DNA of 64,000 bases from Gemmatimonadales bacterium (GTDB taxonomy: Bacteria > Gemmatimonadota > Gemmatimonadetes > Gemmatimonadales > GWC2-71-9), in NCBI GenBank assembly GCA_036555275.1, contig DATBLR010000091.1, forward strand, positions 8,888 to 72,887, read 5' to 3'. The notes beneath the pieces are model-generated. The model had not been told where the DNA came from and ran no database searches. It worked only from the letters and a program-made list of their open reading frames with translations. A program made the position numbers and the translations under genes. This document shows, in pieces, positions 6,093 through 63,861 of this stretch; position 1 is the first letter of the stretch, and each line of letters opens with the position of its first letter.

Positions 6093-8272
6093 GTGCCGAG
6101 CAGCTGGCGCACCACATCCAGCAGCTGCTGCTGGTCGAAGCTCGACTTTCCCAGGTACGCGTCCGCGCCGACCTCGAGCCCGCGGGCCCGGTGCTCGGTC
6201 GACTCCAGGGCGGTGACCAGGACCAGGGGAAGTCGCCGGAATCGCGTCGACGCGCGGATGGCCGCACACAGGCCGAAGCCGTCCATCCGGGGCATGTCAA
6301 CGTCGGCGACGACCAGATCCGCGCCACGCTCCTGGAGTTGCCGCCACGCGTCAGCTCCGTCGACGGCCGTGTCCACCTCGTAACCGGCCGCCTGCAGCAC
6401 GCTCTGCTCCAGGGCGCGGGTAGTGATGGAATCGTCCACGACGAGGAGCCGCCGCCGGGTCGGCGTGCCCTCCGCAGCCTCCGAGCTGACCCCAAGGCGG
6501 CCGCCCAGCCCGAGACCCGCGTCGACCACCGCCGCCGGGTCGAGCACCAGCGCCACCTCGCCGGTCCCGAGTAGCGCGGCGCCACTCAGATTCGGCGACG
6601 GTCTGTCCTTTCGCCCAACCGGCCGGACGACGACCTCCTGTTCGGCCCGGAGCTCGTCCACCACCAGTGCCAACCGGCGCTCGCCGCTTCGCACCACGAC
6701 CATCGGGAGGATGCCGGCCGTCGGGCGCTCCTGAAACGGCGGGCCGAGCACTTTTGCCAGGGAGGCCAGGGGTACCGGCCCTTCGGGAGTGGTCAGCACA
6801 TCGCGGCCTTCGGCGTTGTGCAGGCTCGCCGGATTCACCCGGCACAGCCGATCCACAGCCGACGTCGGAATAGCCAGCGTCTGCGGCCCGAGGCCAACCA
6901 GGACCACGCGAATCGTCGCGAGACTGGGAGGGGCCTCGATGGTGAAGCGAGTGCCGCGTCCCGCCTCCCACGCGACCGCGACGCGACCCCGGATCCGTCC
7001 AACCGCCGCGCGCACCGCATCCAGTCCCACCCCCCGCCCCGAGACGACGGTCGGGGCGCTGCGGGTGGAGAACCCACCGCGGAAGAGAGCGTCGCCCAAT
7101 TCCCGATCGGTACCAGGCACCGGCGCGCCGGCCGCGCGCATTCGCTCGCAAAGGGCGTCAGCTCTCATTCCGGCGCCGTCATCAGCCACGCTTACGACGA
7201 TCCGGTCACCGCTGAGCGCCGCCTCGACCATGATCTCTCCCATCGCGGGCTTCCCTGCAGCCTGCCGCTCGGCAGCAGTCTCGATTCCGTGGTCAACGGC
7301 GTTCCGGACCAGGTGGAGCAGGGCGTCGCGGAGACCGTCGAGCACGGCGCGATCGGCCTCCACCTCCCCGCCCCGGATGACCAGCCGCGCCTCCTTGCCG
7401 AGGCTCGTTGCGAGGTCGCGAACCGTGCGGGGCAACACTTGGCACGCTTCCGCGAAGGGCCGGAGCCGGAGCCGGCGGGCCCGGTCGGCGACGTCGTCCG
7501 TTACCCGGGCAAGGCTGCGGGTGTCCTGCAGCGCGAGCGCAGCGAGGCGGCGGCTCTCCTGGATCAGGTGCTCGGCGTGAGCCGACACCAACTCCAGGGA
7601 ACGGACCAAGGCCGGCGAATGATCCAGGGCGAGGCGCAATTGCCGGCTGGTCCGCTTCCAGGTCAGCGCCCAGGTGACGGCGTATTCATGCAGCGACTGG
7701 AGCTCGACCGGATGCTGGGCAAGCCGCTCCTCGAGCATCGGAATCTGCCCAGCGGCGGCGAGGAGGCCGTCGAGTTTGTCGGCCTCGACCCGCACGTGTC
7801 CGTCACTCCGCTCAATGACCGGCGGGGGGACGGATGCGGCGGCCTCCGCGGCAGGGGGGGGCCGCCTGCCAGTGGTGGCGCCTGCCTCCAGGGTTTGCAG
7901 CGCCTTCCGAAGCTCCGCCGGCACCGCCTCCCCGGCTTCCGCTCCGGCCTTGAGCCGATTGCCAACCGCCGTCAGCGCATCCGCGGCTCTGAAGAGCACG
8001 CCGAACTGTTCGTGGCCCAGGGTGCGCCGGCCACTCCGCACCTCGGCGAGGGCAGCCTCCAGCGCATGACACACCTCCTCCACGGAGTCGACTCGCGCGG
8101 CGCGGGCGGCCCCCTTGAGGGAGTGAACCACCCGAAACAGCGAGCGCAACCGCTCAACGTCTGCCGGGGCGGTCTCCAGGGCCAGCAGGTCGGCATTCAT
8201 GATCCGCACCTGCTCGTCCAGCTCGCTGGCGAAGGTCACCAGCAGGCGACGCGCCATCTGGTCGCGGTCCAT
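6089..8272 (-). CDS. cheA: CheA-type histidine kinase with C-terminal receiver (Hpt-dimerisation-HATPase-CheW-REC)
   Basis: 727 aa. Hpt HSLKGAARAARV, N-box HLVRNAVDHGIE, DDGAGM, GRGVGLDAV, CheW-like domain, C-terminal REC (LLVVDDS...VVADVDMPRMDG). Confidence 0.92.
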   Translation of the reverse strand: MDRDQMARRLLVTFASELDEQVRIMNADLLALETAPADVERLRSLFRVVHSLKGAARAARVDSVEEVCHALEAALAEVRSGRRTLGHEQFGVLFRAADALTAVGNRLKAGAEAGEAVPAELRKALQTLEAGATTGRRPPPAAEAAASVPPPVIERSDGHVRVEADKLDGLLAAAGQIPMLEERLAQHPVELQSLHEYAVTWALTWKRTSRQLRLALDHSPALVRSLELVSAHAEHLIQESRRLAALALQDTRSLARVTDDVADRARRLRLRPFAEACQVLPRTVRDLATSLGKEARLVIRGGEVEADRAVLDGLRDALLHLVRNAVDHGIETAAERQAAGKPAMGEIMVEAALSGDRIVVSVADDGAGMRADALCERMRAAGAPVPGTDRELGDALFRGGFSTRSAPTVVSGRGVGLDAVRAAVGRIRGRVAVAWEAGRGTRFTIEAPPSLATIRVVLVGLGPQTLAIPTSAVDRLCRVNPASLHNAEGRDVLTTPEGPVPLASLAKVLGPPFQERPTAGILPMVVVRSGERRLALVVDELRAEQEVVVRPVGRKDRPSPNLSGAALLGTGEVALVLDPAAVVDAGLGLGGRLGVSSEAAEGTPTRRRLLVVDDSITTRALEQSVLQAAGYEVDTAVDGADAWRQLQERGADLVVADVDMPRMDGFGLCAAIRASTRFRRLPLVLVTALESTEHRARGLEVGADAYLGKSSFDQQQLLDVVRQLLGT

Positions 8273-8814
8273 CAGTCCCTGGACCTCGCGCCGTCTCCCG
8301 TCGCCGGACTCTGCTGGACCAGCGCCAGCAACCGGCGTCCCAGCCGATCCAGGTCCTGGGCCGCGCGCTCCGCCTGCCGGGTCGAGGCCAGGTTCTGCTG
8401 GGTCGCTTCGTGGATGTTGGCCATCGCCTGACGGATCTGGCTCATCCCCACGGTCTGCTGGCCCGCCGAGGCCACGATCTGGGCGGCCGCCTGGGCGGCC
8501 TCACCCACCGCATCGCGCACCTGCCTGGCAACGGTCCCCACCTGCTTGGTCCCCTCCTCGGTGGTCATCACCGCCGCCCCCGTCGCCCGCTGGATCTCGC
8601 CGAGGATCCGACGGACCTCCACGGTGGCGCGCTTCGACTGCTCCGCGAGGCCCTTCACCTCGGCGGTCTGCGCCACTTCGTCCACCGTGGCCACTGTCTC
8701 CGTGACCGCGGCCGATGTTTCGGTGGCCCCCGACGCCTGCTGGGTCGTCGCGGCCAGGATCTGGCTCGCGCTGCTCGCCAGCACCGTCGCCGTTTCCTGC
8801 AGCGGACGGCTCAC
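8272..8814 (-). CDS. MCP-derived protein lacking TM/HAMP and the signalling hairpin tip (intact ORF; possibly a pseudogene)
   Basis: 180 aa, colinear and highly similar to residues ~228-505 of the MCP at 486..1991. An exact in-frame gap removes ~99 aa (QAAQRARAV...RGFAVVAGE). The junction reads VDEVAQTAE|VKGLAEQSK. Its stop overlaps the cheA ATG by 1 nt. Confidence 0.6.
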   Translation of the reverse strand: MSRPLQETATVLASSASQILAATTQQASGATETSAAVTETVATVDEVAQTAEVKGLAEQSKRATVEVRRILGEIQRATGAAVMTTEEGTKQVGTVARQVRDAVGEAAQAAAQIVASAGQQTVGMSQIRQAMANIHEATQQNLASTRQAERAAQDLDRLGRRLLALVQQSPATGDGARSRD

Positions 8815-19881: not shown

Positions 19882-19934
19882 GGGGAACGGGGAACGGGGA
19901 ACGGGGAACGGGGAACGGGGAACGGGGAACGGGG
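19882..19934. repeat. tandem heptamer array (GGGGAAC) x 7.5, solo arm, immediately 5' of tRNA-Leu
   Basis: Read directly: ggggaac repeated perfectly from 19882 to 19934. No complementary arm nearby. Confidence 0.95.
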
Positions 19935-20075
19935 CCCGATGATGAGTTGGAGTTTCGCGTGCGTCAACCCCAATCTTCCTTAATCTCGCCTCGTTTCACC
20001 CTCCTCACTCTCCGCTCCCTTTGATCGGAGGCCGCCATCAATCGTGACTCCTGCCCGCTCGACGCCTCAGGTGTT

Positions 20076-22842: not shown

Positions 22843-23086
22843 GGAGAACGGGAATGGGGAACGGGGAATAGGGAACGGGGAAAGGGGAACAGGGAACGGG
22901 GAACGGGACAAGCCTGGAGAATTCTCCCCGCGTCAACGCTGCAAGGGCACCATCGATGGCTGAGAGATCAGAGCCAAGTGCACTTCCCGTTCCCTGTTCC
23001 CCGTTCCCCTTTCCCCCCTCCGTCGGAGATCCAGAAGGGAAGACACGCCTCACTCCCGTTCCCCCTTCCCCGTTCCCCGTTCCCCC
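22843..23086. repeat. opposed heptamer-repeat arms, GGGGAAC family (left 22843-22908; right 22983-23018 and 23053-23086), unique ~75-nt centre
   Basis: Left arm ggagaacgggaatggggaacggggaatagggaacggggaaaggggaacagggaacggggaacggga. Right arms cttcccgttccctgttccccgttcccc... and ctcccgttcccccttccccgttccccgttccccc. Fills the convergent gap between the OMP stop and the recN stop, and enters the recN 3' end. Confidence 0.9.
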
Positions 23087-43648: not shown

Positions 43649-43722
43649 GGGAGAACGGGGAACAGGGAACGGGGAACGGGGGAACGTAGCGACCGTTCCC
43701 CGTTCCCCGTTCCCTGTTCTCC
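43649..43722. repeat. heptamer-repeat hairpin, GGGGAAC family, between rsmA start and PP2C stop
   Basis: gggagaacggggaacagggaacggggaacgggggaacg, then tagcgac, then cgttccccgttccccgttccctgttctcc. Confidence 0.92.
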
Positions 43723-50738: not shown

Positions 50739-50776
50739 GCCGTTGGCCGTCAGCCATTAGCAGTCAGCCGTCAGCG
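50739..50776. repeat. solo tandem heptamer array (CCGTCAG-like x 5) overlapping the dnaG stop
   Basis: gccgttggccgtcagccattagcagtcagccgtcagcg read directly. Confidence 0.8.
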
Positions 50777-52593
50777 TCCTGCGTCGCCCTTCGGCCGCGA
50801 CGCGTGGCCTGAAAACCCAGCGTTCGGAATTCCTCCGGATACTTCAGCTTCAGTTCCCGGGCCTTCTGATCCTTGAGGGCCAGCAGGGCGGACTTCTCCG
50901 CGCCGGTGGCCTGCCGGATCCTTTCGTTAAGCTCCCGCCACGTCTGAAACTCCGACCGGGCCTCGAGTTTGCGGCTTGCGGCCGCGAACAGATTGGCCTG
51001 GCCGGTGTAGTCCAACGGTATATCGGAGCTCGCGAGGCGAAGCCATTCGGCCCTCATTGCGTCGGAGAGAGTCTCCGGCGGGACGGCCACGCCCGGCTCA
51101 CGAAGGGTCAGCAGGACCTCAGCGAGCGCCCGGTACGAGGGCGTTTGAAACCACTCGGTCTGCATCGACTCGCGCCATCGGCTGCGCCATTCGTTGTCGG
51201 TAATCAGCAGCCGGAGCATCTGTTGCTCGGTCCTGGAACCGGCCTTTCGTGCGGGGGATCCTGACGAACTCGGCGGCTCAGCAGCTCGGAGGCCCGGCGG
51301 CTCCGCGGTCCGTGGAGCGGGCGCCTCCGCCGCCTCGTGTTCCAGCACCTTCTTGTCGACCCCGGATCGCTCGGCCACGAGCGAGAGGTAGAGTTCACGC
51401 TGGATCGGGTCCTTGGTGGCGCGAATGGTCGGGAGCAGACGATCCAGGGCGTCGCGCCGATGCTCGATCCCGCTGAACCAGCCCTTGCGGTCGAGCAGCT
51501 GGATCTTCCGTTCCATGATGTCGACCGCATCCCCGAGGATCCCCTCCAGCGCGGCCAATCCGCCACGCTGGACCAGGCTGTCGGGGTCTTCACCGGCGGG
51601 AAGGGTCGCGACCTTGACCCGCGTTTCGTGCCGCAGCAGCTCATCGCCGGCGCGGAAGGTGGCCCGGAGTCCCGCCATGTCGCTGTCGAGCAGCAGAATC
51701 GCCTGCGGAGCGTAGCGCTTGAGCAGGCCGGCCTGGTCCGGTGTCAGCGCGGTGCCCAGTGGAGCCACCACGTTCTCACAACCGGCCAGCACCAGGCGGA
51801 GCACGTCGAAGTATCCCTCCACAACAATGACGGCGCCGTCACGACGGATTGCGTTCTTGGCCGCGTGAAGGTTGTAGAGGGTCTGACCCTTCCTGAAGAT
51901 CGGGCTCTCGGGGGAGTTGAGGTATTTGGGCTCGCCAGGGCCCAGCAGCCGCCCACCGAAGCCCACGACCCGGCCACGCAGATCGTGGATCGGAAACAGC
52001 AGCCGGCCGCGGAACCGGGGGATGATGGTCCCATCCTCGCGACGCGCCAGCAGGCCGGCCTCGAGCATCACCGGCTCCTCCAGCCCGAGCGCCTTCATCG
52101 CCTGGACAAAGCCCTGGGCCCTCGGGGCGAAGCCCAGCTCGAAGGGCTCCACGGTTTCCAGCTCGACGTCCCGTCCCAGCAGGTAGCGTCGGGCATCCTC
52201 GGCGTCCGGCGCGTCGCGCAGCTGGCGGGCGAACCAGTCGTGAGCCATCGCAACGGCCTGGAACAACGGCTCCCGGGGATCGGGACCCTGGCGGGTGGAT
52301 TCCGGGATGACGATCCCGACCTTGCGGGCCACCTCGCGCACCGCCTCGGGATAGTCCAGGCCGAACCGTTTCATGTACCACGAGAACACGTCGCCGGACG
52401 CCTTGCAGACGAAGCAGTAGTAGCGTCCCTTCTTCGGGATCACCGCGAAGTTGCGGTGCTGGCCGCCGTGAAAGGGACAGGGGCCGCGGTAGTCGGAGCC
52501 GGTTCGCTTGAGGTCCACTGATTCGCCGATGATGGTGAGCAGGTCCGCGCTGTCGCGCACCTGCTCGATCACCTCGTCGGGAATCATGCTCAT
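50764..52593 (-). CDS. dnaG: DNA primase
   Basis: 609 aa. Zinc finger CPFHGGQHRNFAVIPKKGRYYCFVCKASGD, TOPRIM (VIVVEGYFDV...LLLDSDMAG). Confidence 0.93.
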   Translation of the reverse strand: MSMIPDEVIEQVRDSADLLTIIGESVDLKRTGSDYRGPCPFHGGQHRNFAVIPKKGRYYCFVCKASGDVFSWYMKRFGLDYPEAVREVARKVGIVIPESTRQGPDPREPLFQAVAMAHDWFARQLRDAPDAEDARRYLLGRDVELETVEPFELGFAPRAQGFVQAMKALGLEEPVMLEAGLLARREDGTIIPRFRGRLLFPIHDLRGRVVGFGGRLLGPGEPKYLNSPESPIFRKGQTLYNLHAAKNAIRRDGAVIVVEGYFDVLRLVLAGCENVVAPLGTALTPDQAGLLKRYAPQAILLLDSDMAGLRATFRAGDELLRHETRVKVATLPAGEDPDSLVQRGGLAALEGILGDAVDIMERKIQLLDRKGWFSGIEHRRDALDRLLPTIRATKDPIQRELYLSLVAERSGVDKKVLEHEAAEAPAPRTAEPPGLRAAEPPSSSGSPARKAGSRTEQQMLRLLITDNEWRSRWRESMQTEWFQTPSYRALAEVLLTLREPGVAVPPETLSDAMRAEWLRLASSDIPLDYTGQANLFAAASRKLEARSEFQTWRELNERIRQATGAEKSALLALKDQKARELKLKYPEEFRTLGFQATRRGRRATQDADG

Positions 52594-55145
52594 GGTGCGA
52601 ACTCCGCCACGGTCACGCCGGTGCCCCCCTGCGTGGGCGGGGCGAACCCGTGGCTCTTCACCCGCCGGTCATGCTGGAGCACCCGCCGCACCCGGTCGCG
52701 CACTACGCCGGTTCCCTTGCCATGGATGATCCGGAGGTACGGTTGTTCCGCGAGCACCGCCCGGTCGAGCGCGGCCACCACGGCCTGCTCGGCCTCGTCG
52801 CCGGTCATGCCACGAAGGTCAATGTCATACGAGGGAGCGGCGGATGAGGTGGATGAGGCGGACGGGCGGACCGGCGGAGCGGCGGACCGGCGGTCTCCCC
52901 TCACTTCGGTGAGGCTGCCGGGATCAACCACCAGTTTCAACGACCCGACCCGCACGACGGCCTTTCCATCCCCCCGAAGTTCCATGAATTCCCCTACCGA
53001 GCCGCTGGCCAGCCGAACCCGGGCGCCCGGCTTCATCCCGTCCGCCGCTCCGCCGGTCCGCCGATCCGCCTCCTCCAAGCTCCTGAGGGCCGCGGCCTCC
53101 GCGGCCGCCGCGGCCTCCACCGCTCGCCGAGCCTCGCGAGCGGCCGCGTCGTCACCCGCCGCCGCTTGCCGAATCGCCGCCTCGACTTTCTCCCGCGCCT
53201 CGAGCAGATAGCTTCGAGCCTGTTCCCGGGCTGCCTTCTCCGCCGCACGCTCCCGCTGGTGGAGCGCCTTGTCGCGAAGTGCCTGGGTCTCCTCCCGGGC
53301 CACCTGCGCCGCGGCCCGCGATTCTACCTCGGACAGCCGGGCCGAGAGCTCCTGTTCCCGTGCGCGCAGCTCCCGCTCCCGCTGTTCGACCGCGCTGAGC
53401 AGGGCGTCGAGATTCCGCTCCGCCTCGGGGACCTGGGTCTCGGCATCGGCCAGCACATCCTCCCGAAGGCCCAGCCGCCGGGCGATGGCCAGGCCGTAGG
53501 AGCGCCCGGGAACGCCCTTCAGCAGCCGATAGGTAGGCTGGAGCGTCGCGGCGTCGAACTGGAGCGAGGCGTTGACGATGCCTGGCGCGACGGTCGCCAG
53601 GCGCTTGAGGGCGCCGAGATGGGTCGTGGCAAGGGTAATGGCTCCGCGACGGGTCAGCGCGATCAGCGCAGCTCCGGCCAGCGCCCCACCTTCGGCGGGA
53701 TCGGTGCCGCCTCCGATCTCATCGATCAGCACCAGGGTCTCGTCGTCCGCCTCGTCGAGGATGACGCGGAGGGCAGTGATGTGGGCGCTGAAGGTCGAGA
53801 GGCTCGCGGCGATCGACTGCCGATCACCGATGTCGGCGTAAACCCGCGTGAACACGGGGAGAGCACTCCCCGGCCCGATCGGCGGAATGATCCCGCTCTG
53901 AGTCAGCGCCACGCTCAATCCCACCGCCTTGAGCAGCACCGACTTCCCGCCGGTGTTGGGGCCGGAGAGGAGGACGCAGCGTTCATTGCCTTCCAACGTC
54001 AGGTCAAAAGGGACGACGTCCGGGCGGCTCGGCGGCTCGGCTCGGCGGCTCGAGGGCTCGGTTGCACGGCTTGGTAGACTGGCGGGGCCAGGTGGGCCGG
54101 CCGAGCCGGCGAGCAACAACGGATGCCGCCCGTTCACGATCCTGAGCTCCGCGGGCGCCGCGGAGACCTGCGGTGCGTGGCCGTCAACATCCACGGCCCA
54201 GCGTGCCCGGGCCACCAGATCGTCCAGCGCCACGCAGGCGGCGTGCAATGCTTCGAGCTCAGCATGTGCGGGGCGCAGCATGTCGGTGAGCTCCCGGAAG
54301 ATGCGCAGCTCCTCCCGCGCCGCCCGGGACTCAGCCTCGCGAAGCGCGTTCCCCAGCTCGATCGCGGCCGTCGGCTCGAGGTAGAGCGTTGCACCGCTCG
54401 CCGATTCGCCGTGCACGAGGCCTTCGGGCCGGCCCCGCAGATCGCGGGGCACCGGGATCACATAACGTCCTTCCCGGAGGGTGACCCCGGCTTCGGCGCC
54501 CGTGGCGCGAAGAATCGCCTCCAGCTTCTGGACCAGTCGCTCGCGCGCGCTGCGGATGTCGCTGCGGGCGGCCGCAAGCCCCGGGCTGGCAGTGTCGCGG
54601 AGGGTTGCGTCATCGTCGAGGGCCTGCTCCAGCCGCCGCTCGAATGCCTTGTCCGGGGCGGGCAGCTCAAGGCTCGCCAGGTGCGGCGCCCACGGCAGCA
54701 CCCGGCGAAGCTCGCCCATGACCACCCGGGCCGCGGTGAGCGTCCGCCGCACCGCCAGGAGTTCGGGTCCGTCGAGCACGCTGCCGCCAATCCGGAGCCG
54801 GGCCAGCACCGGGGCAAGCGCCGGCACCGGCTCCGCCACCATTCCCTTCCCCTCCCGAGCCAGTCTCGCCAGCTCCTCCACCCGCAGCAACTCCTCGCGG
54901 ATCCAAACCGGATCTCGCCGTGGACTCCTGCCGCGCACACTCGCCGCGCCTAACTCACCGGCTGCCCGCTCGGCGATCTCCTCGACGACCGCGGCGAACT
55001 CGAGCGCCTCAAGCGCCTCGGCCCACTCGTCGGCTCCTGCCGCCGCGTCGCCGAGCCGCCGAGCCGCCGAAACAGCGGACGGGGTGCCAGCGTCCGCGGA
55101 CACTAGCACCCCGTCGGGGAGTTTGATCTGGGTCTGGTCGGTCAT
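52590..55145 (-). CDS. mutS2: endonuclease MutS2 (MutS domain V ATPase + Smr)
   Basis: ORF 52590..55340. Likely start is MTDQTQIKLPDG at 55145. LLSGPNTGGKSVLLKAVGL, LIDEIGGGTDP, C-terminal Smr IDLRGMTGDEAEQAV...LRIIHGKGTG. Confidence 0.92.
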   Translation of the reverse strand: MTDQTQIKLPDGVLVSADAGTPSAVSAARRLGDAAAGADEWAEALEALEFAAVVEEIAERAAGELGAASVRGRSPRRDPVWIREELLRVEELARLAREGKGMVAEPVPALAPVLARLRIGGSVLDGPELLAVRRTLTAARVVMGELRRVLPWAPHLASLELPAPDKAFERRLEQALDDDATLRDTASPGLAAARSDIRSARERLVQKLEAILRATGAEAGVTLREGRYVIPVPRDLRGRPEGLVHGESASGATLYLEPTAAIELGNALREAESRAAREELRIFRELTDMLRPAHAELEALHAACVALDDLVARARWAVDVDGHAPQVSAAPAELRIVNGRHPLLLAGSAGPPGPASLPSRATEPSSRRAEPPSRPDVVPFDLTLEGNERCVLLSGPNTGGKSVLLKAVGLSVALTQSGIIPPIGPGSALPVFTRVYADIGDRQSIAASLSTFSAHITALRVILDEADDETLVLIDEIGGGTDPAEGGALAGAALIALTRRGAITLATTHLGALKRLATVAPGIVNASLQFDAATLQPTYRLLKGVPGRSYGLAIARRLGLREDVLADAETQVPEAERNLDALLSAVEQRERELRAREQELSARLSEVESRAAAQVAREETQALRDKALHQRERAAEKAAREQARSYLLEAREKVEAAIRQAAAGDDAAAREARRAVEAAAAAEAAALRSLEEADRRTGGAADGMKPGARVRLASGSVGEFMELRGDGKAVVRVGSLKLVVDPGSLTEVRGDRRSAAPPVRPSASSTSSAAPSYDIDLRGMTGDEAEQAVVAALDRAVLAEQPYLRIIHGKGTGVVRDRVRRVLQHDRRVKSHGFAPPTQGGTGVTVAEFAP

Positions 55146-55204
55146 CCCGCCTGAAGTCCGGCGAGCGACACGGGTCTCTTGCTCATGACGGCCATGGAAG
55201 GGAA

Positions 55205-55405
55205 TCAAATCCGTGGCGGGCGCGGATAGGTGCGGCGAGTCTTGCGGTGCGCCGCGTTCTGCTTTCGTTTCCGCTTCTCGCTGGGTTTCTCGTAGTGGCG
55301 ATGTTTGCGCAAATCGGAGAGAATCCCGGCTTTTTCGCACTTCTTCTTGAACCGCTTGAGGGCCCGTTCAAAGCTCTCGTCATCATGGATGATGACTTCG
55401 GACAT
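55205..55405 (-). CDS. rpsU: 30S ribosomal protein S21
   Basis: ORF 55205..55486. Start is [48 protein letters not shown] at 55405. Confidence 0.92.
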
Positions 55406-55510
55406 CCCAGGACTCACCCCTCTCGACCGCCGATGGCGTATGGTGTTGAGGGATGGGAACTTAGAGGGGAGAATCGCGAAAGGCAACGGGCGGATGTGAT
55501 CCGCGTGCTC

Positions 55511-57198: not shown

Positions 57199-57237
57199 GG
57201 GCTATCGCTATCGGCTATCGGCTATCGGCTATCGGCC
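57199..57237. repeat. solo tandem heptamer array (GGCTATC x 5) just upstream of the SBP-OmpA gene start
   Basis: gggctatcgctatcggctatcggctatcggctatcggcc read directly. Confidence 0.92.
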
Positions 57238-57244
57238 GCGGCAT

Positions 57245-57293
57245 GATCGCAGCGGGCCGCATCGCTGCGGGCCGCATCGCTGCGGCCCCTACC
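57245..57293. repeat. tandem 15-mer (GCGGGCCGCATCGCT x 2+) ending in GGCCCCTACCC; variant of the GC-rich palindrome family, at the pspA 3' end
   Basis: atcgcagcgggccgcatcgctgcgggccgcatcgctgcggcccctaccc read directly. Confidence 0.85.
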
Positions 57294-58089: not shown

Positions 58090-58233
58090 AACAGGGAACG
58101 GGGAACGGGGAACAGGGAACGGGACGAACTCTTATGCAATGGGCGTAAGGGCGTCATGAGGGGCATGATTACCGTTCCCCGTTCCCCGTTCCCTGTTCCC
58201 CCGTTTCTTTTCCCCGTTCCCGTTTCCCCGTTC
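58090..58233. repeat. opposed heptamer-repeat arms, GGGGAAC family, ~47-nt unique centre, between pspA start and AAA+ stop
   Basis: Left arm aacagggaacggggaacggggaacagggaacggga. Right arm ccgttccccgttccccgttccctgttcccccgtttcttttccccgttcccgtttccccgttc. Confidence 0.92.
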
Positions 58234-58237
58234 TGGC

Positions 58238-59956
58238 CTACACGAACCGCCTCAACTCCTCGATCTTCCGCTCGATCTCCTCCGGGGCGAGATCCCGGTA
58301 CCGCGCCGGCAGGAACCGGACATCGGTACACTCCTTGACCGCCACGAGGTCCATGTACTCGAGCTTGCGGGTGTGCGCGTTGGGACGCACCTCCCGGATA
58401 ACCTCGACCAGGATCTCCTTCAGCGGCCGGCGAGGCTCGGGAGACAGCTCCCACACCCTGAGGCTGCGCACGAAAACGCCTTCGATCTCGTTGCCGCCCA
58501 GGGTCAGGTCGCGAGGCAGCTCTGGCAGATCCCCGTCGCCGAGGGGCACCTGGATCTTCCGCGCCACCGCGAGGAGGAGGGCGCGGCGCTCCTCCACGGT
58601 CTCGGGGGGGAACAGCGGAATGTGGACATCGAGTCGGCCCTGGCGCTTCAGGTCCACTTCCAGCAGGTCGGGTCGCGAGGTCGCGAAGATCCAGATGATG
58701 CGGCCGCGGTTCGCGGTATCGGACATCTCCTTGGCGAGCATCGAATAAACCCGGCCGGAGAGCCCGCTGTCGCCTTCGCCCCCTTCCCGCTTGCCTGCGG
58801 CCTGGTCGGCCTCGTCCACGAACACGACGACCTGACCCAGCGCGTGCAGCACCGCGAAGATCTTCTCGAGGTTGGATTCGGTGGCGCCCACCCAGCGATC
58901 CCGGAAGTTCTTGAAGACCACACACGGAATGCCCAGCTCGCCGGCCCAGCAGGTGACCAGGAAGGTCTTTCCCGTCCCGATGCGGCCCGCGATGAGGTAG
59001 CCCATCGGCAGCGCGTGCAGCACGCCCCGCCGGAGCAGCTCGGCGTCCTCCCGGAGCCACGTGCGCACCGCGTCGAGGCCGGCGACGTGGTCGAGGGTGT
59101 AGCTCGACTCGATGAACTCCAGCAGCCCCTGGCACTCGCGCTCGATGGCGTCCTTCTTCATCCGGGTGAGCCACGCCACGGTGATCCGCTCCCCGTTCTT
59201 GAGCGCGAGGGCGAGTACCCGACGCGCCGCCACCCGGGAGAGGCCGGTGAGTCGCCGGGCGAGGATGTCCATCGACACGTCGCAGCTGGCGGGCAGCTCC
59301 GGCATCTCTTTCTGAACCAGGACGGCCAGATACTCCCGCATTTCCGCCTCGTTCGGCAGCGGGACCCGGAGCGCCACGGCGTGGGGGTTCTCCACGACCA
59401 GCTCGTTGAGGTCGTGCAGCCCCTCGCTGAGCAGGACGGTGACGACATTGGCATGGAGGATCGCCGGGTCGTTGGCCCAGCCGAGCACTTTGACGACGTT
59501 GGCGCTGAACGCGCCGCCCAGCGCCACCGCGTCTCCCCGGGGCACCACGAACTCGGCGAAATCAATCACCACCGCCAGCTTCCGGGCGGCGGCCTCCTGG
59601 TCCCCGATCGCCTGCAGGTTCAGGGTCCGGAGCAGGTAGCGATCGATGAGCTCGAGCGCTGAACCCGGCTCGCGCAGGTAGCTCTGGTTGCGGGCCTCGT
59701 CTCCCAGCGCCCCGCGCAGCCACTCGCTCCAGTCCTCCCCACCCCGGACGGCGCGGATGCCGCGGCTCCGGTCGTAGTGCAGCACCACGTCATAGGACGC
59801 GAACATCACTTCATCCAGAAAGCCCTTCACCGAGAGCATCCTGCCGTCCTGGGGCACGGCGTCGAAGATGTTGCCGTGCAGGATGAACTGGGCACAGCCG
59901 CCGGAGCGGAAGAGGTTCCGCATCTCCATCGCCCACGAGGGCAGCGGGGTGCTCAT
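58238..59956 (-). CDS. tandem AAA+ ATPase: degenerate N-terminal AAA-like module + active classic-clade AAA module
   Basis: 572 aa. D2 has Walker A GRIGTGKT, Walker B VVFVDEAD and an SRH-like ATSRPDLLEVDLKRQGRLDVHIPL. The N-terminal ~270 aa follow AAA topology but with a dead P-loop (FILHGNIFD) and dead Walker B (LAVVIDFAEF). Start overlaps the upstream gene stop (ATGA). Confidence 0.85.
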   Translation of the reverse strand: MSTPLPSWAMEMRNLFRSGGCAQFILHGNIFDAVPQDGRMLSVKGFLDEVMFASYDVVLHYDRSRGIRAVRGGEDWSEWLRGALGDEARNQSYLREPGSALELIDRYLLRTLNLQAIGDQEAAARKLAVVIDFAEFVVPRGDAVALGGAFSANVVKVLGWANDPAILHANVVTVLLSEGLHDLNELVVENPHAVALRVPLPNEAEMREYLAVLVQKEMPELPASCDVSMDILARRLTGLSRVAARRVLALALKNGERITVAWLTRMKKDAIERECQGLLEFIESSYTLDHVAGLDAVRTWLREDAELLRRGVLHALPMGYLIAGRIGTGKTFLVTCWAGELGIPCVVFKNFRDRWVGATESNLEKIFAVLHALGQVVVFVDEADQAAGKREGGEGDSGLSGRVYSMLAKEMSDTANRGRIIWIFATSRPDLLEVDLKRQGRLDVHIPLFPPETVEERRALLLAVARKIQVPLGDGDLPELPRDLTLGGNEIEGVFVRSLRVWELSPEPRRPLKEILVEVIREVRPNAHTRKLEYMDLVAVKECTDVRFLPARYRDLAPEEIERKIEELRRFV

Positions 59957-60807
59957 CGGGCCTCCTTGAGGGCCGCCCGGGCGACGGCAGGCGGCGGTTC
60001 TTCCAGCAGGTCATCCAGCGAGCCATACAGCTTCTGCTGGTCGGAGATCCACTGGGTGGCACCCCCCAGGCTGCCGGTGATCTCGTCCAGTCGGGCCGAC
60101 ATGCCGTCGGCGTCCGCCGACAGCGCGGCCTGCTCGCGGAGCAGCTCCACCTGTTCCTGAATCCGCAGAATCTCGGCCTCCAGGAAGTCCAGCTTCTCGC
60201 GTCCTTCCCGGCGCTGCTGCACTCGCTGCTGCAGGATCTCCGCCTGGCTGGTGAGGCTCTTGCGAAGGTCCCCAGCGAGCGACGCGTCGCCCAGTCGTCG
60301 CTGCAGGTCGGAGAGCCGGGTTTCCAGCTCCTGCGTCTCCCCCAGGTTCGGTTCCTTCAGCACCCGGCTGATCGCGCGGCGGGCAATCAGCAGACGCAGG
60401 TAAACCCAGATGAGCTTGCTCAGATTCTCGCTCTGTATTTCGACGCCGGAACCGGATGGATCCTGCTGGGCAAAGAGATCGAGGATGCCCCGGCAGCGGG
60501 CCACGAAAGCGACGTAGCGCGCCTGGTCCGGATCGGACAATCGTCGTACCATGGCGTCCAACCGGTCCTTCCACTCGCGCTCAGTGCCTGACGTGGCCCT
60601 GGCGGCGATCGCACGCTGAAAGCGGCCGTTGGTGGTGAGCGTCAGCAGGTAGGTGAGTTCCACCCCGGCCCCCACCAGCCAGAAGCCGGGGTTGGTCAGA
60701 CCTAACAGGCCGAAGGCCGCGAGGCCGATCCAGTTCGGCGCCACGAACATCCCGAACGGCCGGGCGTTGAACGCGGAAGTGAGGTAGGTCCAGAACGTGG
60801 GTTTCAT
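59953..60807 (-). CDS. 2-TM membrane protein with long cytoplasmic coiled-coil domain (hypothetical)
   Basis: ORF 59953..60888. Likely start is MKPTFWTYLTSAF at 60807. TM segments FGMFVAPNWIGLAAFGLLGL and FWLVGAGVELTYLLTL, then ~200 aa of heptad-rich helices. Confidence 0.65.
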   Translation of the reverse strand: MKPTFWTYLTSAFNARPFGMFVAPNWIGLAAFGLLGLTNPGFWLVGAGVELTYLLTLTTNGRFQRAIAARATSGTEREWKDRLDAMVRRLSDPDQARYVAFVARCRGILDLFAQQDPSGSGVEIQSENLSKLIWVYLRLLIARRAISRVLKEPNLGETQELETRLSDLQRRLGDASLAGDLRKSLTSQAEILQQRVQQRREGREKLDFLEAEILRIQEQVELLREQAALSADADGMSARLDEITGSLGGATQWISDQQKLYGSLDDLLEEPPPAVARAALKEAR

Positions 60808-60830: not shown

Positions 60831-60862
60831 GGGTAGGGGGCGCATGCATGCGCCCCCTACCC
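60831..60862. repeat. perfect 32-nt palindrome GGGTAGGGGGCGCATGCATGCGCCCCCTACCC between the HIT gene 3' end and the start of the 2-TM/AAA+ operon
   Basis: Read directly and checked to equal its own reverse complement. Confidence 0.9.
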
Positions 60863-61204
60863 CGGCGGCCATGCCATGCGCCGGCCACCCAGCAGATGGA
60901 AGTGAAGGTGAAACACCGATTGCCCGCCGTCGGGTCCGGTGTTGGTGATCAGCCGATACCCCGACGTGTCCAGACCCAGCTCGCTGGCGACGCTGGTCGC
61001 GAAGAGCAGCAGCCTCCCCAGGAGGGCCTCGCCCTCCGATCCGGAGAGGTCCCGTGCCGCCGAGTAGTGCTTGGTGGGGATGACCAGGACGTGGACCGGC
61101 GCTTGCGGGGTCAGATCGTGAAAGGCGACCGCCTCCGGCGTCCGGCGGACCAGCTTGGCGGCGATGTCGCCGCTCGCGATCTTGCAGAAAACGCACTCAG
61201 CCAT
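60857..61204 (-). CDS. HIT-family (histidine triad) nucleotide hydrolase
   Basis: 115 aa. CVFCKI, VHVLVIPTKH, GQSVFHLHFHLLGG. Confidence 0.92.
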   Translation of the reverse strand: MAECVFCKIASGDIAAKLVRRTPEAVAFHDLTPQAPVHVLVIPTKHYSAARDLSGSEGEALLGRLLLFATSVASELGLDTSGYRLITNTGPDGGQSVFHLHFHLLGGRRMAWPPG

Positions 61205-61910
61205 GACCGCCTCGCTGGCGTGCCAGCCACGCCGTGGTGAGGGCGGCGAGCGCCGCCGTTTCGAACCTCAGCCGGTTCGGACCGAGCCGCACCGGAGCAA
61301 ACCCCGCCGCCTTCAGGGCCGAGCGCTCCTCCGCTGTGAAGCCCCCCTCGGGTCCCACCGCGATGGTGACGGCATCGGTCTGGCCGAGACCGGGGAACTG
61401 CTTTCCCTCCTCCTCCGCCAGCCACCGCGCCCCCTCCGGTGGGCTAGCCAGAAACTGAGGCAACGGCACCGGATCCGCCACGACCGGGGCCCATGCCGAG
61501 CCGCACTGTTTGATGGCGTCGCGCGCCCGGCGACGCACCCGCTCAAGATGCGCCGGCCGAAGCCGGGTGGCCACGCTCGCGGTTCGGGCGGTCTCCAGCG
61601 GCACCACTCGGGTGGCTCCGAGCTGGGCCGCCTGCTCGACCAGCCAGCCGAAGCGGTCGCGATCTCCCGCGCCCACGGCGAGGATCGTGGGGACCGGGGC
61701 CGGCTCCCGGGCCACCGCCTCTACCCGCACCGTCACCCGCCGGCCCTCGAGCGCCAGCCGGCCGCTGGCCTCCGCGCCGGCGCCGTCGAGCAGACGCACC
61801 GGCGCGTCGGGCGCTGCTCGACGCACTGCGAGATGGTGTTCCTCTTCCGCCTCGAGCGTCACCGTTGCCCCCGCGACCAGGCTGCCCGGGCGCGCGAGGA
61901 CGGTGATCAT
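61197..61910 (-). CDS. rsmE: 16S rRNA (uracil1498-N3)-methyltransferase
   Basis: ORF 61197..61937. Likely start is MITVLARPG at 61910 (4-nt overlap with the prmA stop). EEHHLAVRRA, C-terminal LGPNRLRFETAALAAL. Confidence 0.85.
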   Translation of the reverse strand: MITVLARPGSLVAGATVTLEAEEEHHLAVRRAAPDAPVRLLDGAGAEASGRLALEGRRVTVRVEAVAREPAPVPTILAVGAGDRDRFGWLVEQAAQLGATRVVPLETARTASVATRLRPAHLERVRRRARDAIKQCGSAWAPVVADPVPLPQFLASPPEGARWLAEEEGKQFPGLGQTDAVTIAVGPEGGFTAEERSALKAAGFAPVRLGPNRLRFETAALAALTTAWLARQRGGHG

Positions 61911-62740
61911 GACCGAACGGCGGCCACCGCCCACCAAGTCTCGTCGACCTGCTCCGCGACGGTAGTGAACCCACCGGCGAGGAGCGCAGGCCGGAACAGC
62001 TCGGCCTCCGCCGCCTCCATACCGGAGAAGATGGCGATTCCACCCGGCCGCAGGGCGGCGTGGATCTCGGGCAGCAGCGCGATATTGATCAGCCGGAGAA
62101 TGTTGGACACGATCAGGTCGGCGGGTGCGACGAGCGGGGTGAGCTGGGCGGCGTCCCCCTCGAGGAAGACCACCCGCTCCAGCACCCGGTTGCGCTCGGC
62201 GTTGTTCGTGGCGAAGGGGAGGGCGTCGGAATCCACTTCAATGCCGATGGCCTTCCCCGCTCCCAGCAGGGCAGCGGCGATGGTGAGGATGCCGCTCCCG
62301 CTCCCCAGATCGAGCACCGTATCGCCCGGCCGCACGAAGCGATCGACCAGGGCCAGCGCGGCCCGGGTCGACCCGTGTTCGCCGCTGCCAAAGGCGAGCT
62401 CCGGGTCGATCACGATCACCCGGTCTCCGTCCGCCGCCGGGTGCTCGATCCACGTCGGCACCACCGCGAACCGGCCCACTCGCCGGACGCCCAACCCCTC
62501 GCGCCAGGCGTTGGTCCAGTCTACATCCGGCTGCTCGCGCCGCGAGACCGGGATCCCCGGTCCGTGCACCCGCGCCAGGTCGTGCTCAATGGCCTCCGCC
62601 GCCGGCATGGTGAGGGCGGAGGAGACCAGGGTCCCGTCCGGCCGCTCCTCGACCGCCTGCCCGGTCCGGGTGACCAGCCAGGCAGCGATGGCGTCGCGGC
62701 GGTCCGCGTCGGGCTGCACCTCAATCTCATACCAGCTCAC
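61907..62740 (-). CDS. prmA: ribosomal protein L11 methyltransferase
   Basis: ORF 61907..62770. Likely GTG start at 62740 (GTGA overlap with the dnaJ stop). [26 protein letters not shown]. Confidence 0.88.
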
Positions 62741-63861
62741 GCGCGCAGGGCCTCTTTCAGCTTGGCCCAAAAGCCGGCGGCGCGCTTGGGTGGGTCGCCC
62801 TCGTGTTTGGCGAGCTCCCGAAACAGCCGCTCCTGCTCCTCGGTCAGCGACTCCGGGGTCCAGACATGGACCCGGATGAGCATGTCCCCCCGGCCCGCCT
62901 GGCCCAGCCTCGGCAGGCCCTTGCCGCGAAGCTTCAGGATGGTCCCCCCCTGGGTTCCCCCGGGAATGGTCACCCGCTCCTCGCCGTGCGGGGTAGGGAG
63001 CGGAACGGTCAGCCCGAGGGCGGCCTGGGAGAAGGAAAGCGGCAGGTCCAGGACCAGGTTGTCACCGTCGCGTTCGAAGCGCTCGTCGTCCTTCACCTCG
63101 ATCATGACGAGCAGGTCTCCGGGCGGCGCATTGCGCGGCCCGACGGCGCCCTGCCCGCGAAGCGTCAGGTAGTTGTTCTCCGAGACGCCGGCCGGAATTT
63201 CGACCTGGACGGTTTTCTCGCTGCGCACCCGGCCTTCTCCGTGGCACTCCTCGCAGGGGGTCCGGATTACGACCCCCTCGCCGGCGCAGGTGGGACAGGG
63301 GCTCACCGAGACGAACTGCCCGAACATGCTCCGTGCCGCGCGACGAACTTCGCCCGTTCCGCCGCAGGTCGAGCAGCTCGCGGGCTTGGTACCCTTGCCA
63401 GCCCCGGTGCCCTCGCAGACGGCGCAGCGATCCAGGGTCTTGAGCTTGATGGAACGCTTGGCGCCGCTGGCCACCTCCGCCAGCGAAATCTTGACGTTCA
63501 CCCGGATGTCCTGGCCCCGCGGCGGCTCCGGCCGGCTGGCCTGGCCGAAGATCGATTCGAATCCGCCGAAGTCCCGCATGAAGATGTTCAGCGCTTCCGC
63601 CAGGTCCACATGGTGGAACCCGTGATATCCCGGCGCACCGGCCCCGCCCAGGCCCGCCTTGCCGTAGCGGTCATAGCGGGCCCGCTTATCCTGATCCTTC
63701 AGCACTTCGTAGGCTTCGGTGATCTCCTTGAACTTCGCCTCGGCATCTGGGGACTGGTTTCGGTCCGGATGGTAGTCCATCGCCAGCCGGCGGTAGGCCT
63801 TCTTGATGTCGGCCTCCGACGCATCCCGGGACACTCCGAGCAAATCGTAGTACTCGCTCAC
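62737..63861 (-). CDS. dnaJ: molecular chaperone DnaJ
   Basis: 374 aa. J domain [32 protein letters not shown], four CxxCxGxG zinc-finger repeats. Confidence 0.95.

Follow-up and report, generated by a model that had tools for sequence, protein, structure and literature searches.

In a 64,000-nucleotide stretch of a Gemmatimonadales genome (assembly GCA_036555275.1, contig DATBLR010000091.1, positions 8,888 to 72,887; hereafter, the window), the reverse-strand gene at 58238-59956 encodes a 572-amino-acid AAA+ ATPase with two AAA folds. The N-terminal one (pseudo-D1) is predicted to be inactive and the C-terminal one (D2) has the motifs of an AAA motor. The gene belongs to a conserved cassette, together with the genes for a transmembrane (TM) coiled-coil protein, for PspA and for an anchored solute-binding and OmpA protein. 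This cassette, which lies outside 58238-59956, is a more informative fact than the inactive D1 itself. On the combined analysis we lean towards the reading that the ATPase is an ATP-driven remodeller of PspA and/or of the membrane-anchored partner, in which the inactive ring would be a scaffold and docking platform.

Architecture of the ATPase

The protein is 100% identical to a database entry from a Gemmatimonadales metagenome-assembled genome (MAG), which bears the annotation AAA family ATPase. Pfam AAA (PF00004) matches residues 321-447 only (E 4e-22), residues 1-285 have no match in Pfam or NCBIfam, and the NCBIfam matches of the protein (CDC48, FtsH, PAN and CdvC) are partial, far below threshold and located at residues ~285-470. 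The AlphaFold2 model of the full-length protein, based on an input alignment of 43 sequences, has a predicted local distance difference test score (pLDDT) of 89.4 and a predicted TM-score (pTM) of 0.85. The Foldseek search against PDB aligned this model over 580-630 columns (E ~1e-20, query TM-score, TMq, 0.52-0.59) with the tandem type-II AAA protomers of Rix7, Cdc48/p97 and NVL, and therefore the N-terminal half superimposes on D1. By phmmer against PDB, the full-length sequence was matched in D2 only (VAT/Cdc48 D2, E 4e-35), and residues 1-285 gave one chance match only at E<=10. The two AAA folds are stacked in one chain like D1 and D2 according to Foldseek, while the hhalign probability is only 63%. 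The protein is a type-II-like, classical-clade AAA+ ATPase, classical by its D2 and type-II by its fold.

A preliminary description, made from the sequence alone, had proposed AAA topology with replaced catalytic motifs for the N-terminal half. This is borne out by the model, the full-length Foldseek alignments, hhalign and the loss of Walker A across the family; the profile-profile comparison and structure prediction that it had recommended for this region both returned an AAA-like domain. In the model, the AAA fold begins at about residue 5, residues 23-198 follow the order beta1-alpha1-beta2-alpha2-beta3-alpha3-beta4-alpha4-beta5 of an AAA core, and a helical lid follows at residues 203-274. 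The hhalign alignment of the family N-domain profile with the profile of its own D2 was collinear (E 1e-5 to 7e-5), placing AVVIDFAE on the D2 Walker B and pairing LLSE..L..NPH...VPLP (family LLTE..L..nP...IPLP) with ATSRPDLL..KRqGR..IPLF of D2. In this pairing 'NPH' occupies the place of the arginine-finger RxGR. In the family alignments and the model, the P-loop place is taken by HGN.xD plus a beta-hairpin. The preliminary description had assigned FILHGNIFD, LAVVIDFAEF and VVTVLLSEGLHDLNELVVENPHAVALRVPLP to the places of the P-loop, Walker B and sensor-1/second region of homology (SRH), respectively. All three lie on model strands in the positions that beta1, beta3 and beta4-beta5 have in an AAA core, and the last two were also recovered by hhalign, but FILHGNIFD was not paired with the D2 P-loop strand, the alignment there being mostly gaps. 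Judged by the full-length Foldseek alignment, the order of the secondary-structure elements and the hhalign comparison, residues 1-285 are predicted to be an AAA-fold domain; P-loop, Walker B acids and arginine fingers are all gone from it. Neither a MIT nor a Cdc48-N domain was found in the protein by Pfam, NCBIfam or the model, in agreement with the earlier reading, and there is no extra N-terminal domain.

The N-domain alone retrieved 1096 cluster representatives at E<=1e-3, 431 of them at E<=1e-10, too many for a chance resemblance. Neither the query nor any of 47 diverse full-length relatives (0/47) has a Walker A in the N-domain; where their N-domains match the query, these relatives are 27-65% identical to it. 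In D2, 40/47 carry one canonical Walker A each, and the other 7/47 have no sequence fitting the pattern (variants such as GTAK or GCGKN, or defective sequences). Among 51 diverse relatives, D32 of FILHGNIFD is invariant (51/51), and H27, G28 and N29 are kept in 43, 44 and 43, respectively. W8, F24, L26, Y61, G66 and W160 are near-invariant, as are K267, K268, E272, G277 and L278 of the linker to D2. On the Walker-B strand, D132 is D in 29/51 and E135 is E in 29/51 relatives, and therefore pseudo-D1 has no conserved catalytic acid pair. The third replacement motif is conserved as WA.DP...LTE.L.DL..L..NP....h.hPLPDE.ER. The degenerate motifs are thus retained both in orthologues, where the preliminary description had advised to look for them, and in distant relatives. 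The mean identity across 80 orthologues of three phyla was 72% for the pseudo-D1 core vs 92% for the D2 core; at the sequence level, this pattern and the conserved degenerate motifs indicate purifying selection on a predicted non-catalytic fold.

The C-terminal half is, by its motifs, a predicted VAT/Cdc48-D2-like motor. Walker B DE is present in 51/51 of the diverse relatives, R438 in 50/51, R441 in 51/51 and an aromatic residue (W/Y/F) in pore loop 1 in 51/51. D2 has the features of the classical AAA clade (PF00004, Walker A and B, SRH arginines, pore loop) except for the sensor-1 Asn, which is Ser427 here and S in 22, N in 11, A in 9 and C in 9 of the relatives, the preceding Thr/Ser being kept. 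The earlier description of this module as fully motif-competent holds for Walker A, Walker B, the pore loop and R438/R441 and is slightly overstated for sensor-1. The C-terminal helices of D2 carry a conserved stretch, AHTRKLEYMD..AVKECTD..FLP.

The conserved PspA cassette

The ATPase gene stands second among four genes on one strand, in the order TM coiled-coil protein, ATPase, PspA/IM30, and anchored solute-binding and OmpA protein. The TM coiled-coil gene overlaps the start of the ATPase gene by 4 nt with its stop codon, and the two genes are predicted to be translationally coupled. The mechanical open reading frame (ORF) of the TM coiled-coil gene reaches 60888, which is 27 codons further upstream than the homologues begin (MKP.F...) and would make it overlap the HIT-family gene at 60857-61204; the true start is probably M28, position 60807. 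The TM coiled-coil protein has a conserved C-terminal tail, QQK.YG..[ED]DLL.EPPP, and PspA has its own, KALEQ.ALA[ED]FLA.QGIQ followed by a variable linker and KE[IM]GP. The fourth protein matches OmpA in Pfam (E 7e-12) and SsuA_fam in NCBIfam (E 1e-12).

For the TM coiled-coil protein, no Pfam match was above the gathering cutoff, and the only match below it was Laminin_II (E 0.008). A divergent Snf7/ESCRT-III identity of this partner was not reproduced, Pfam at E<=1 returning noise only. The hhalign probability against the PspA profile was 0.8%, and the AlphaFold2 model of moderate quality (pLDDT 71.9) had no Foldseek match in PDB at E<=1e-3.

We analyzed 80 related loci in GTDB species genomes of Gemmatimonadota, Acidobacteriota, Planctomycetota and one bin labelled Burkholderiales, counting neighbours at the loci with enough flanking sequence. 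In 73/74 loci the TM coiled-coil gene lies upstream of the ATPase gene and in 65/65 pspA lies downstream of it, both on the strand of the ATPase gene; the gene for the solute-binding and OmpA protein is present in 57/58. Across Gemmatimonadota, Acidobacteriota and Planctomycetota the identity is 68-85% for the ATPase and 70-87% for PspA. The synteny outside the cassette (HIT, RsmE, S21, MutS2) holds within Gemmatimonadota only. The flanking genes differ between the phyla, and therefore the cassette persists as a unit.

The association extends to more distant relatives. In the relative P0200 (locus L081), 27% identical in pseudo-D1, a gene for a PspA-like protein (31% identity, E 4e-34) and one for a TM coiled-coil protein (22% identity, E 2e-17) lie immediately upstream, suggesting by sequence comparison that the triad of ATPase, PspA and TM protein co-diverges and is retained in this locus. 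The first element of the PspA tail and the proline-rich tail of the TM protein are still recognized there, and solute-binding and vWA proteins flank the PspA-like and TM coiled-coil genes. One distant relative retains the TM coiled-coil partner only, without adjacent PspA. In some Acidobacteria (L029), ABC permease and ATPase genes are located upstream and a vWA lipoprotein gene downstream of the cassette.

Several variations of the cassette and of the family were also observed. In L029, a 214-amino-acid coiled-coil protein without a Pfam family is encoded between the ATPase and pspA genes (7735-8379). Insertions of ~0.7-1.3 kb at the same place were found in L024, L026, L034, L042, L043, L056, L058, L061, L065, L067, L068, L075 and L077. 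The loci with insertions are a subset of Acidobacteriota and Planctomycetota, most of them with a divergent (~27-30% identical) gene for the solute-binding and OmpA protein. Relatives of ~820-856 amino acids (P0146, which is L083 1909-4479, and P0150, P0184, P0223) have an extension of ~250-280 amino acids N-terminal to pseudo-D1. The gene for P0146, the only member of this extended subfamily examined for its context, is not beside pspA, and a PIN toxin-antitoxin-like pair is located nearby.

Relationship to known systems

The idea of a PspA-linked remodeller with an inactive and an active AAA domain is not new and was already proposed by Ravi et al. 2024 (mSystems, PMC11237479), who described 'inactive-classical-AAA+classical-AAA' proteins in PspA operons in silico. 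The neighbours reported there are PspA and TM+'Snf7', with ABC ATPase, permease and PBPB+OmpA in longer operons, and ATP-dependent membrane remodelling comparable to Snf7/Vps4 was suggested (PMC11237479). The match of the 572-amino-acid ATPase with this family is one of architecture and neighbourhood (published examples are AEY64320.1 of Clostridium, CKH37208.1, and the neighbourhood of OGG56892.1 of Handelsmanbacteria). A dead N-terminal copy followed by an active classical AAA, and the PspA, TM-anchored helical and PBPB+OmpA neighbours, are common to both. The Gemmatimonadales locus differs by having no ABC transporter genes, which are present in L029, and by a gene order unlike that of the Handelsmanbacteria example. 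No experimental work on the PspA-linked family was found in the literature. The preliminary description had named, as grounds for rejecting its reading, membership of a well-characterised family whose function is unrelated; this does not apply, as the family is described in silico only.

Published reviews state that bacteria are without a Vps4-like ATPase (PMC7619361), and according to a 2025 review such an ATPase "appears absent in bacteria". The present locus resembles Vps4/CdvC in having a classical-clade AAA+ gene beside an ESCRT-III-superfamily gene as well as a Trp in pore loop 1, and the conserved C-terminal tails of the partners could act like MIM motifs. It differs in that the ATPase has no MIT domain, has two AAA folds instead of one, and is nearer to Cdc48/FtsH in sequence. 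The NCBIfam CdvC model NF041006 gave 35.6 bits vs a cutoff of 650, and the CDC48 model TIGR01243 gave 65.9 bits vs 802.

The likeness to Cdc48/p97/VAT and Rix7/NVL includes the best sequence matches, to their D2, the fold matches spanning both domains and the similar protomer geometry. The ATPase differs from these proteins by the absence of the double-psi barrel N domain and of all nucleotide motifs in D1. Cyanobacterial Ycf46 is of similar length and also has its AAA domain at the C-terminus. In NSF (D2) and Pex1/Pex6 (D1), one ring does not hydrolyse nucleotide and serves assembly or the binding of partners, while the other ring works, and these non-hydrolysing rings still bind nucleotide. 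In pseudo-D1, by contrast, the P-loop itself is gone. The E. coli Psp system, with PspF and PspA, also has an AAA+ protein functionally coupled to PspA. PspF, however, is an NtrC-type sigma-54 activator with a helix-turn-helix (HTH) domain, and the ATPase described here matches PF00004 only, with no Sigma54_activat or HTH match.

Proposed function

In the mechanism that we propose, the ATPase would assemble as a double-ring hexamer, since the geometry of its type-II protomer is like that of substrate-engaged Cdc48/p97 and its SRH arginines are kept in the family. The dead pseudo-D1 ring would be a scaffold for assembly that needs no nucleotide and a surface for docking, replacing MIT or Cdc48-N domains, and the D2 ring would thread substrate polypeptides. 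The putative substrates are the ESCRT-III-type PspA polymer and/or the membrane-anchored coiled-coil partner, which could be engaged via their conserved C-terminal tails in a MIM-like manner. The result would be ATP-driven disassembly or recycling of a scaffold for inner-membrane repair or remodelling, as for Vps4/CdvC on ESCRT-III, and the periplasmic solute-binding and OmpA protein might couple the system to the envelope (periplasm and cell wall). A role of pseudo-D1 as the substrate or partner platform, suggested in the preliminary description, is plausible and consistent with the purifying selection on the domain. We put forward more tentatively, as a possibility short of a probability, the specific version in which the family is the bacterial functional counterpart of Vps4 and, in a hexameric motor, the pseudo-D1 ring instead of a MIT domain reads the tails of PspA (ALAEFLASQGIQ...KEIGP) and of the membrane-anchored partner (EDLL.EPPP), the motor disassembling or recycling their polymers with ATP.

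Several points weigh against an ATP-driven PspA remodeller. The Ser at the sensor-1 position (Ala/Cys in relatives) suggests that the hydrolysis kinetics may be unusual. According to NCBIfam, the D2 sequence is nearer to Cdc48/VAT and FtsH than to Vps4/CdvC. P0146, P0236 and the stand-alone orthologue L074 have neither PspA nor the TM partner nearby; some distant members are thus without a nearby PspA, and therefore PspA may not be the universal substrate. A long hairpin repeat is located between the ATPase gene and pspA and could influence their co-transcription, which is not certain. All the functional assignments are guilt by association, with interaction and activity predicted from gene context.

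The client could instead be the TM coiled-coil protein or its trans-envelope complex with the solute-binding and OmpA protein and, in relatives, the ABC transporter, the ATPase being an assembly or extraction chaperone and PspA a co-induced membrane stabiliser. The tightest linkage is indeed that of the TM protein (4-nt overlap, 73/74 loci), and the pair of TM protein and ATPase is the most widely retained, persisting in the divergent relative without adjacent PspA. The ABC permease/ATPase and vWA lipoprotein genes that join the cassette in Acidobacteria, and the solute-binding and vWA proteins in L081, would fit such a complex. PspA adjacency is, however, equally strict in the subfamily (65/65), PspA co-diverges with the ATPase in L081, and it has its own conserved tail motif, so that we regard a client role of the TM protein with PspA as a bystander as unlikely, though it is the main alternative.

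It has also to be considered that PspA is a regulator or adaptor of the ATPase in the manner of PspF, and that the motor acts on unlinked clients during envelope stress. Published reviews and papers describe that PspA binds and regulates the AAA+ protein PspF (inhibition, in E. coli). This precedent concerns an NtrC-type protein, but the ATPase here is of the classical clade, matching PF00004 with no Sigma54_activat or HTH, and carries an aromatic pore loop of the threading type, and we find PspA in a regulatory role improbable.

A general Cdc48/VAT-like proteostasis unfoldase with an incidental pspA neighbour would agree with the best sequence and fold matches (Cdc48/VAT/p97/Rix7) and with the stand-alone orthologue L074. 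The synteny kept across three phyla in different genomic surroundings, the missing Cdc48-N domain, the dead D1 and the absence of a protease partner within the cassette argue against it, making it quite improbable. An anti-phage defence system with an IetA-like AAA has hardly any probability in our view: the weak partial D2 matches to IetA/IteA (PADLOC and NCBIfam; E 1e-10 and 8e-6) cover the generic AAA core only, there is no IetS-like protease partner, PADLOC returned no match for the remaining three proteins of the cassette, and the cassette sits among housekeeping genes (DnaJ, PrmA, RsmE, S21, MutS2, DnaG).

Features of the locus

The features of the locus are listed in Table 1. The strand of the cassette also carries, downstream of it, the housekeeping genes for S21 (within 55205-55486), a MutS2-like protein (ORF 52590-55340) and DnaG primase (50764-52593). 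The upstream genes at 60857-63861 encode HIT, RsmE, PrmA and DnaJ. All these downstream and upstream genes were identified from ORF translations, and homologues of S21, MutS2, HIT and RsmE were in addition recovered in related loci by tblastn.

Table 1. Positions of the ATPase gene, its domains and motifs, the other cassette genes and the spacer repeat in the window
Feature	Position	Strand	Basis
Whole ATPase gene, 572 aa, pseudo-D1 + D2, classical-clade AAA+ ATPase	58238..59956	-	ORF, AlphaFold2 model, Foldseek
Predicted pseudo-D1 alpha/beta core without nucleotide-binding motifs, aa 1-200	59357..59956	-	secondary structure, family Walker A scan
FILHGNIFD, aa 24-32, in the P-loop place	59861..59887	-	family motif F.LHGN[VI].D, D32 invariant
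LAVVIDFAEF, aa 127-136, on the Walker-B strand	59549..59578	-	family motif hhhD[YF]AE..hP; hhalign
VVTVLLSEGLHDLNELVVENPHAVALRVPLP, aa 171-201, at the sensor-1/SRH position	59354..59446	-	hhalign; conserved in the family
Pseudo-D1 helical lid and linker KK..IE.EC.GLLEFIE, aa 201-285	59102..59356	-	model helices 203-274
D2 (aa 286-572) alpha/beta core, aa 286-450	58607..59101	-	Pfam PF00004, phmmer vs PDB, motif conservation
D2 Walker A GRIGTGKT, aa 324-331	58964-58987	-	motif, conserved in 51 relatives
D2 pore loop 1, with RWVG at aa 354-357	58886-58903	-	motif, conserved in 51 relatives
D2 Walker B VVVFVDE, aa 376-382	58811-58831	-	motif, conserved in 51 relatives
D2 sensor-1/SRH with R438, R441	58628-58684	-	R438 in 50/51, R441 in 51/51 relatives; sensor-1 variable
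D2 lid and conserved C-terminal helices, aa 451-572, and stop codon	58238..58606	-	model helices 454-571
TM coiled-coil protein, 284 aa, N-terminal 2-TM hairpin and long coiled coil, upstream of the ATPase gene	59953..60807	-	ORF, homologue alignment
PspA/IM30, ESCRT-III superfamily, 244 aa	57296..58030	-	Pfam PF04012, E 2e-8, 34.3 bits vs cutoff 33.9
Fourth gene, N-terminally anchored SsuA/NMT1-like solute-binding + C-terminal OmpA peptidoglycan-binding domain, 550 aa	55532..57184	-	Pfam, NCBIfam
Heptamer-repeat palindrome (GGGGAAC)n/(GTTCCCC)n in the ATPase-pspA spacer	58091..58203	.	dispersed intergenic repeat

The palindrome in the spacer between the ATPase gene and pspA folds to a long hairpin (-82 kcal/mol, z -4.7). 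Its 14-mer has 35 matches vs 1.1 expected, with further copies in the window at 19882-19937, 22849-23085 and 43650-43722, and the same palindrome occurs in the same spacer of another MAG, from a related member of Gemmatimonadota (L015 7734-7844). The palindrome appears to be a repetitive extragenic palindrome (REP)-like genomic repeat and is probably not specific to the cassette. A regulatory RNA in the intergenic spacers was considered and rejected, the Rfam matches being miRNA-like, below threshold and caused by the dispersed palindrome. The promoter and terminator scan was uninformative in this 68% GC genome, with no promoter-like sites and with terminator-like sites at chance level. Two short tandem arrays, GGCTATC x5.4 and the 15-mer ATCGCTGCGGGCCGC x2.7, are located in the spacer between pspA and the gene for the solute-binding and OmpA protein (57200-57285).

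Significance

To the published in silico proposal our analysis adds the structural support for the dead D1, the quantified synteny, the co-divergence of the triad, the candidate tail motifs and the caveat about sensor-1. A pseudo-AAA ring without nucleotide motifs that is under strong selection bears on the use of inactive rings in type-II AAA+ machines. The cassette is a concrete and widely conserved candidate for ATP-driven turnover of PspA, a bacterial ESCRT-III protein. If this is true, nucleotide-driven ESCRT-III turnover would extend beyond archaea and eukaryotes, at variance with recent reviews.

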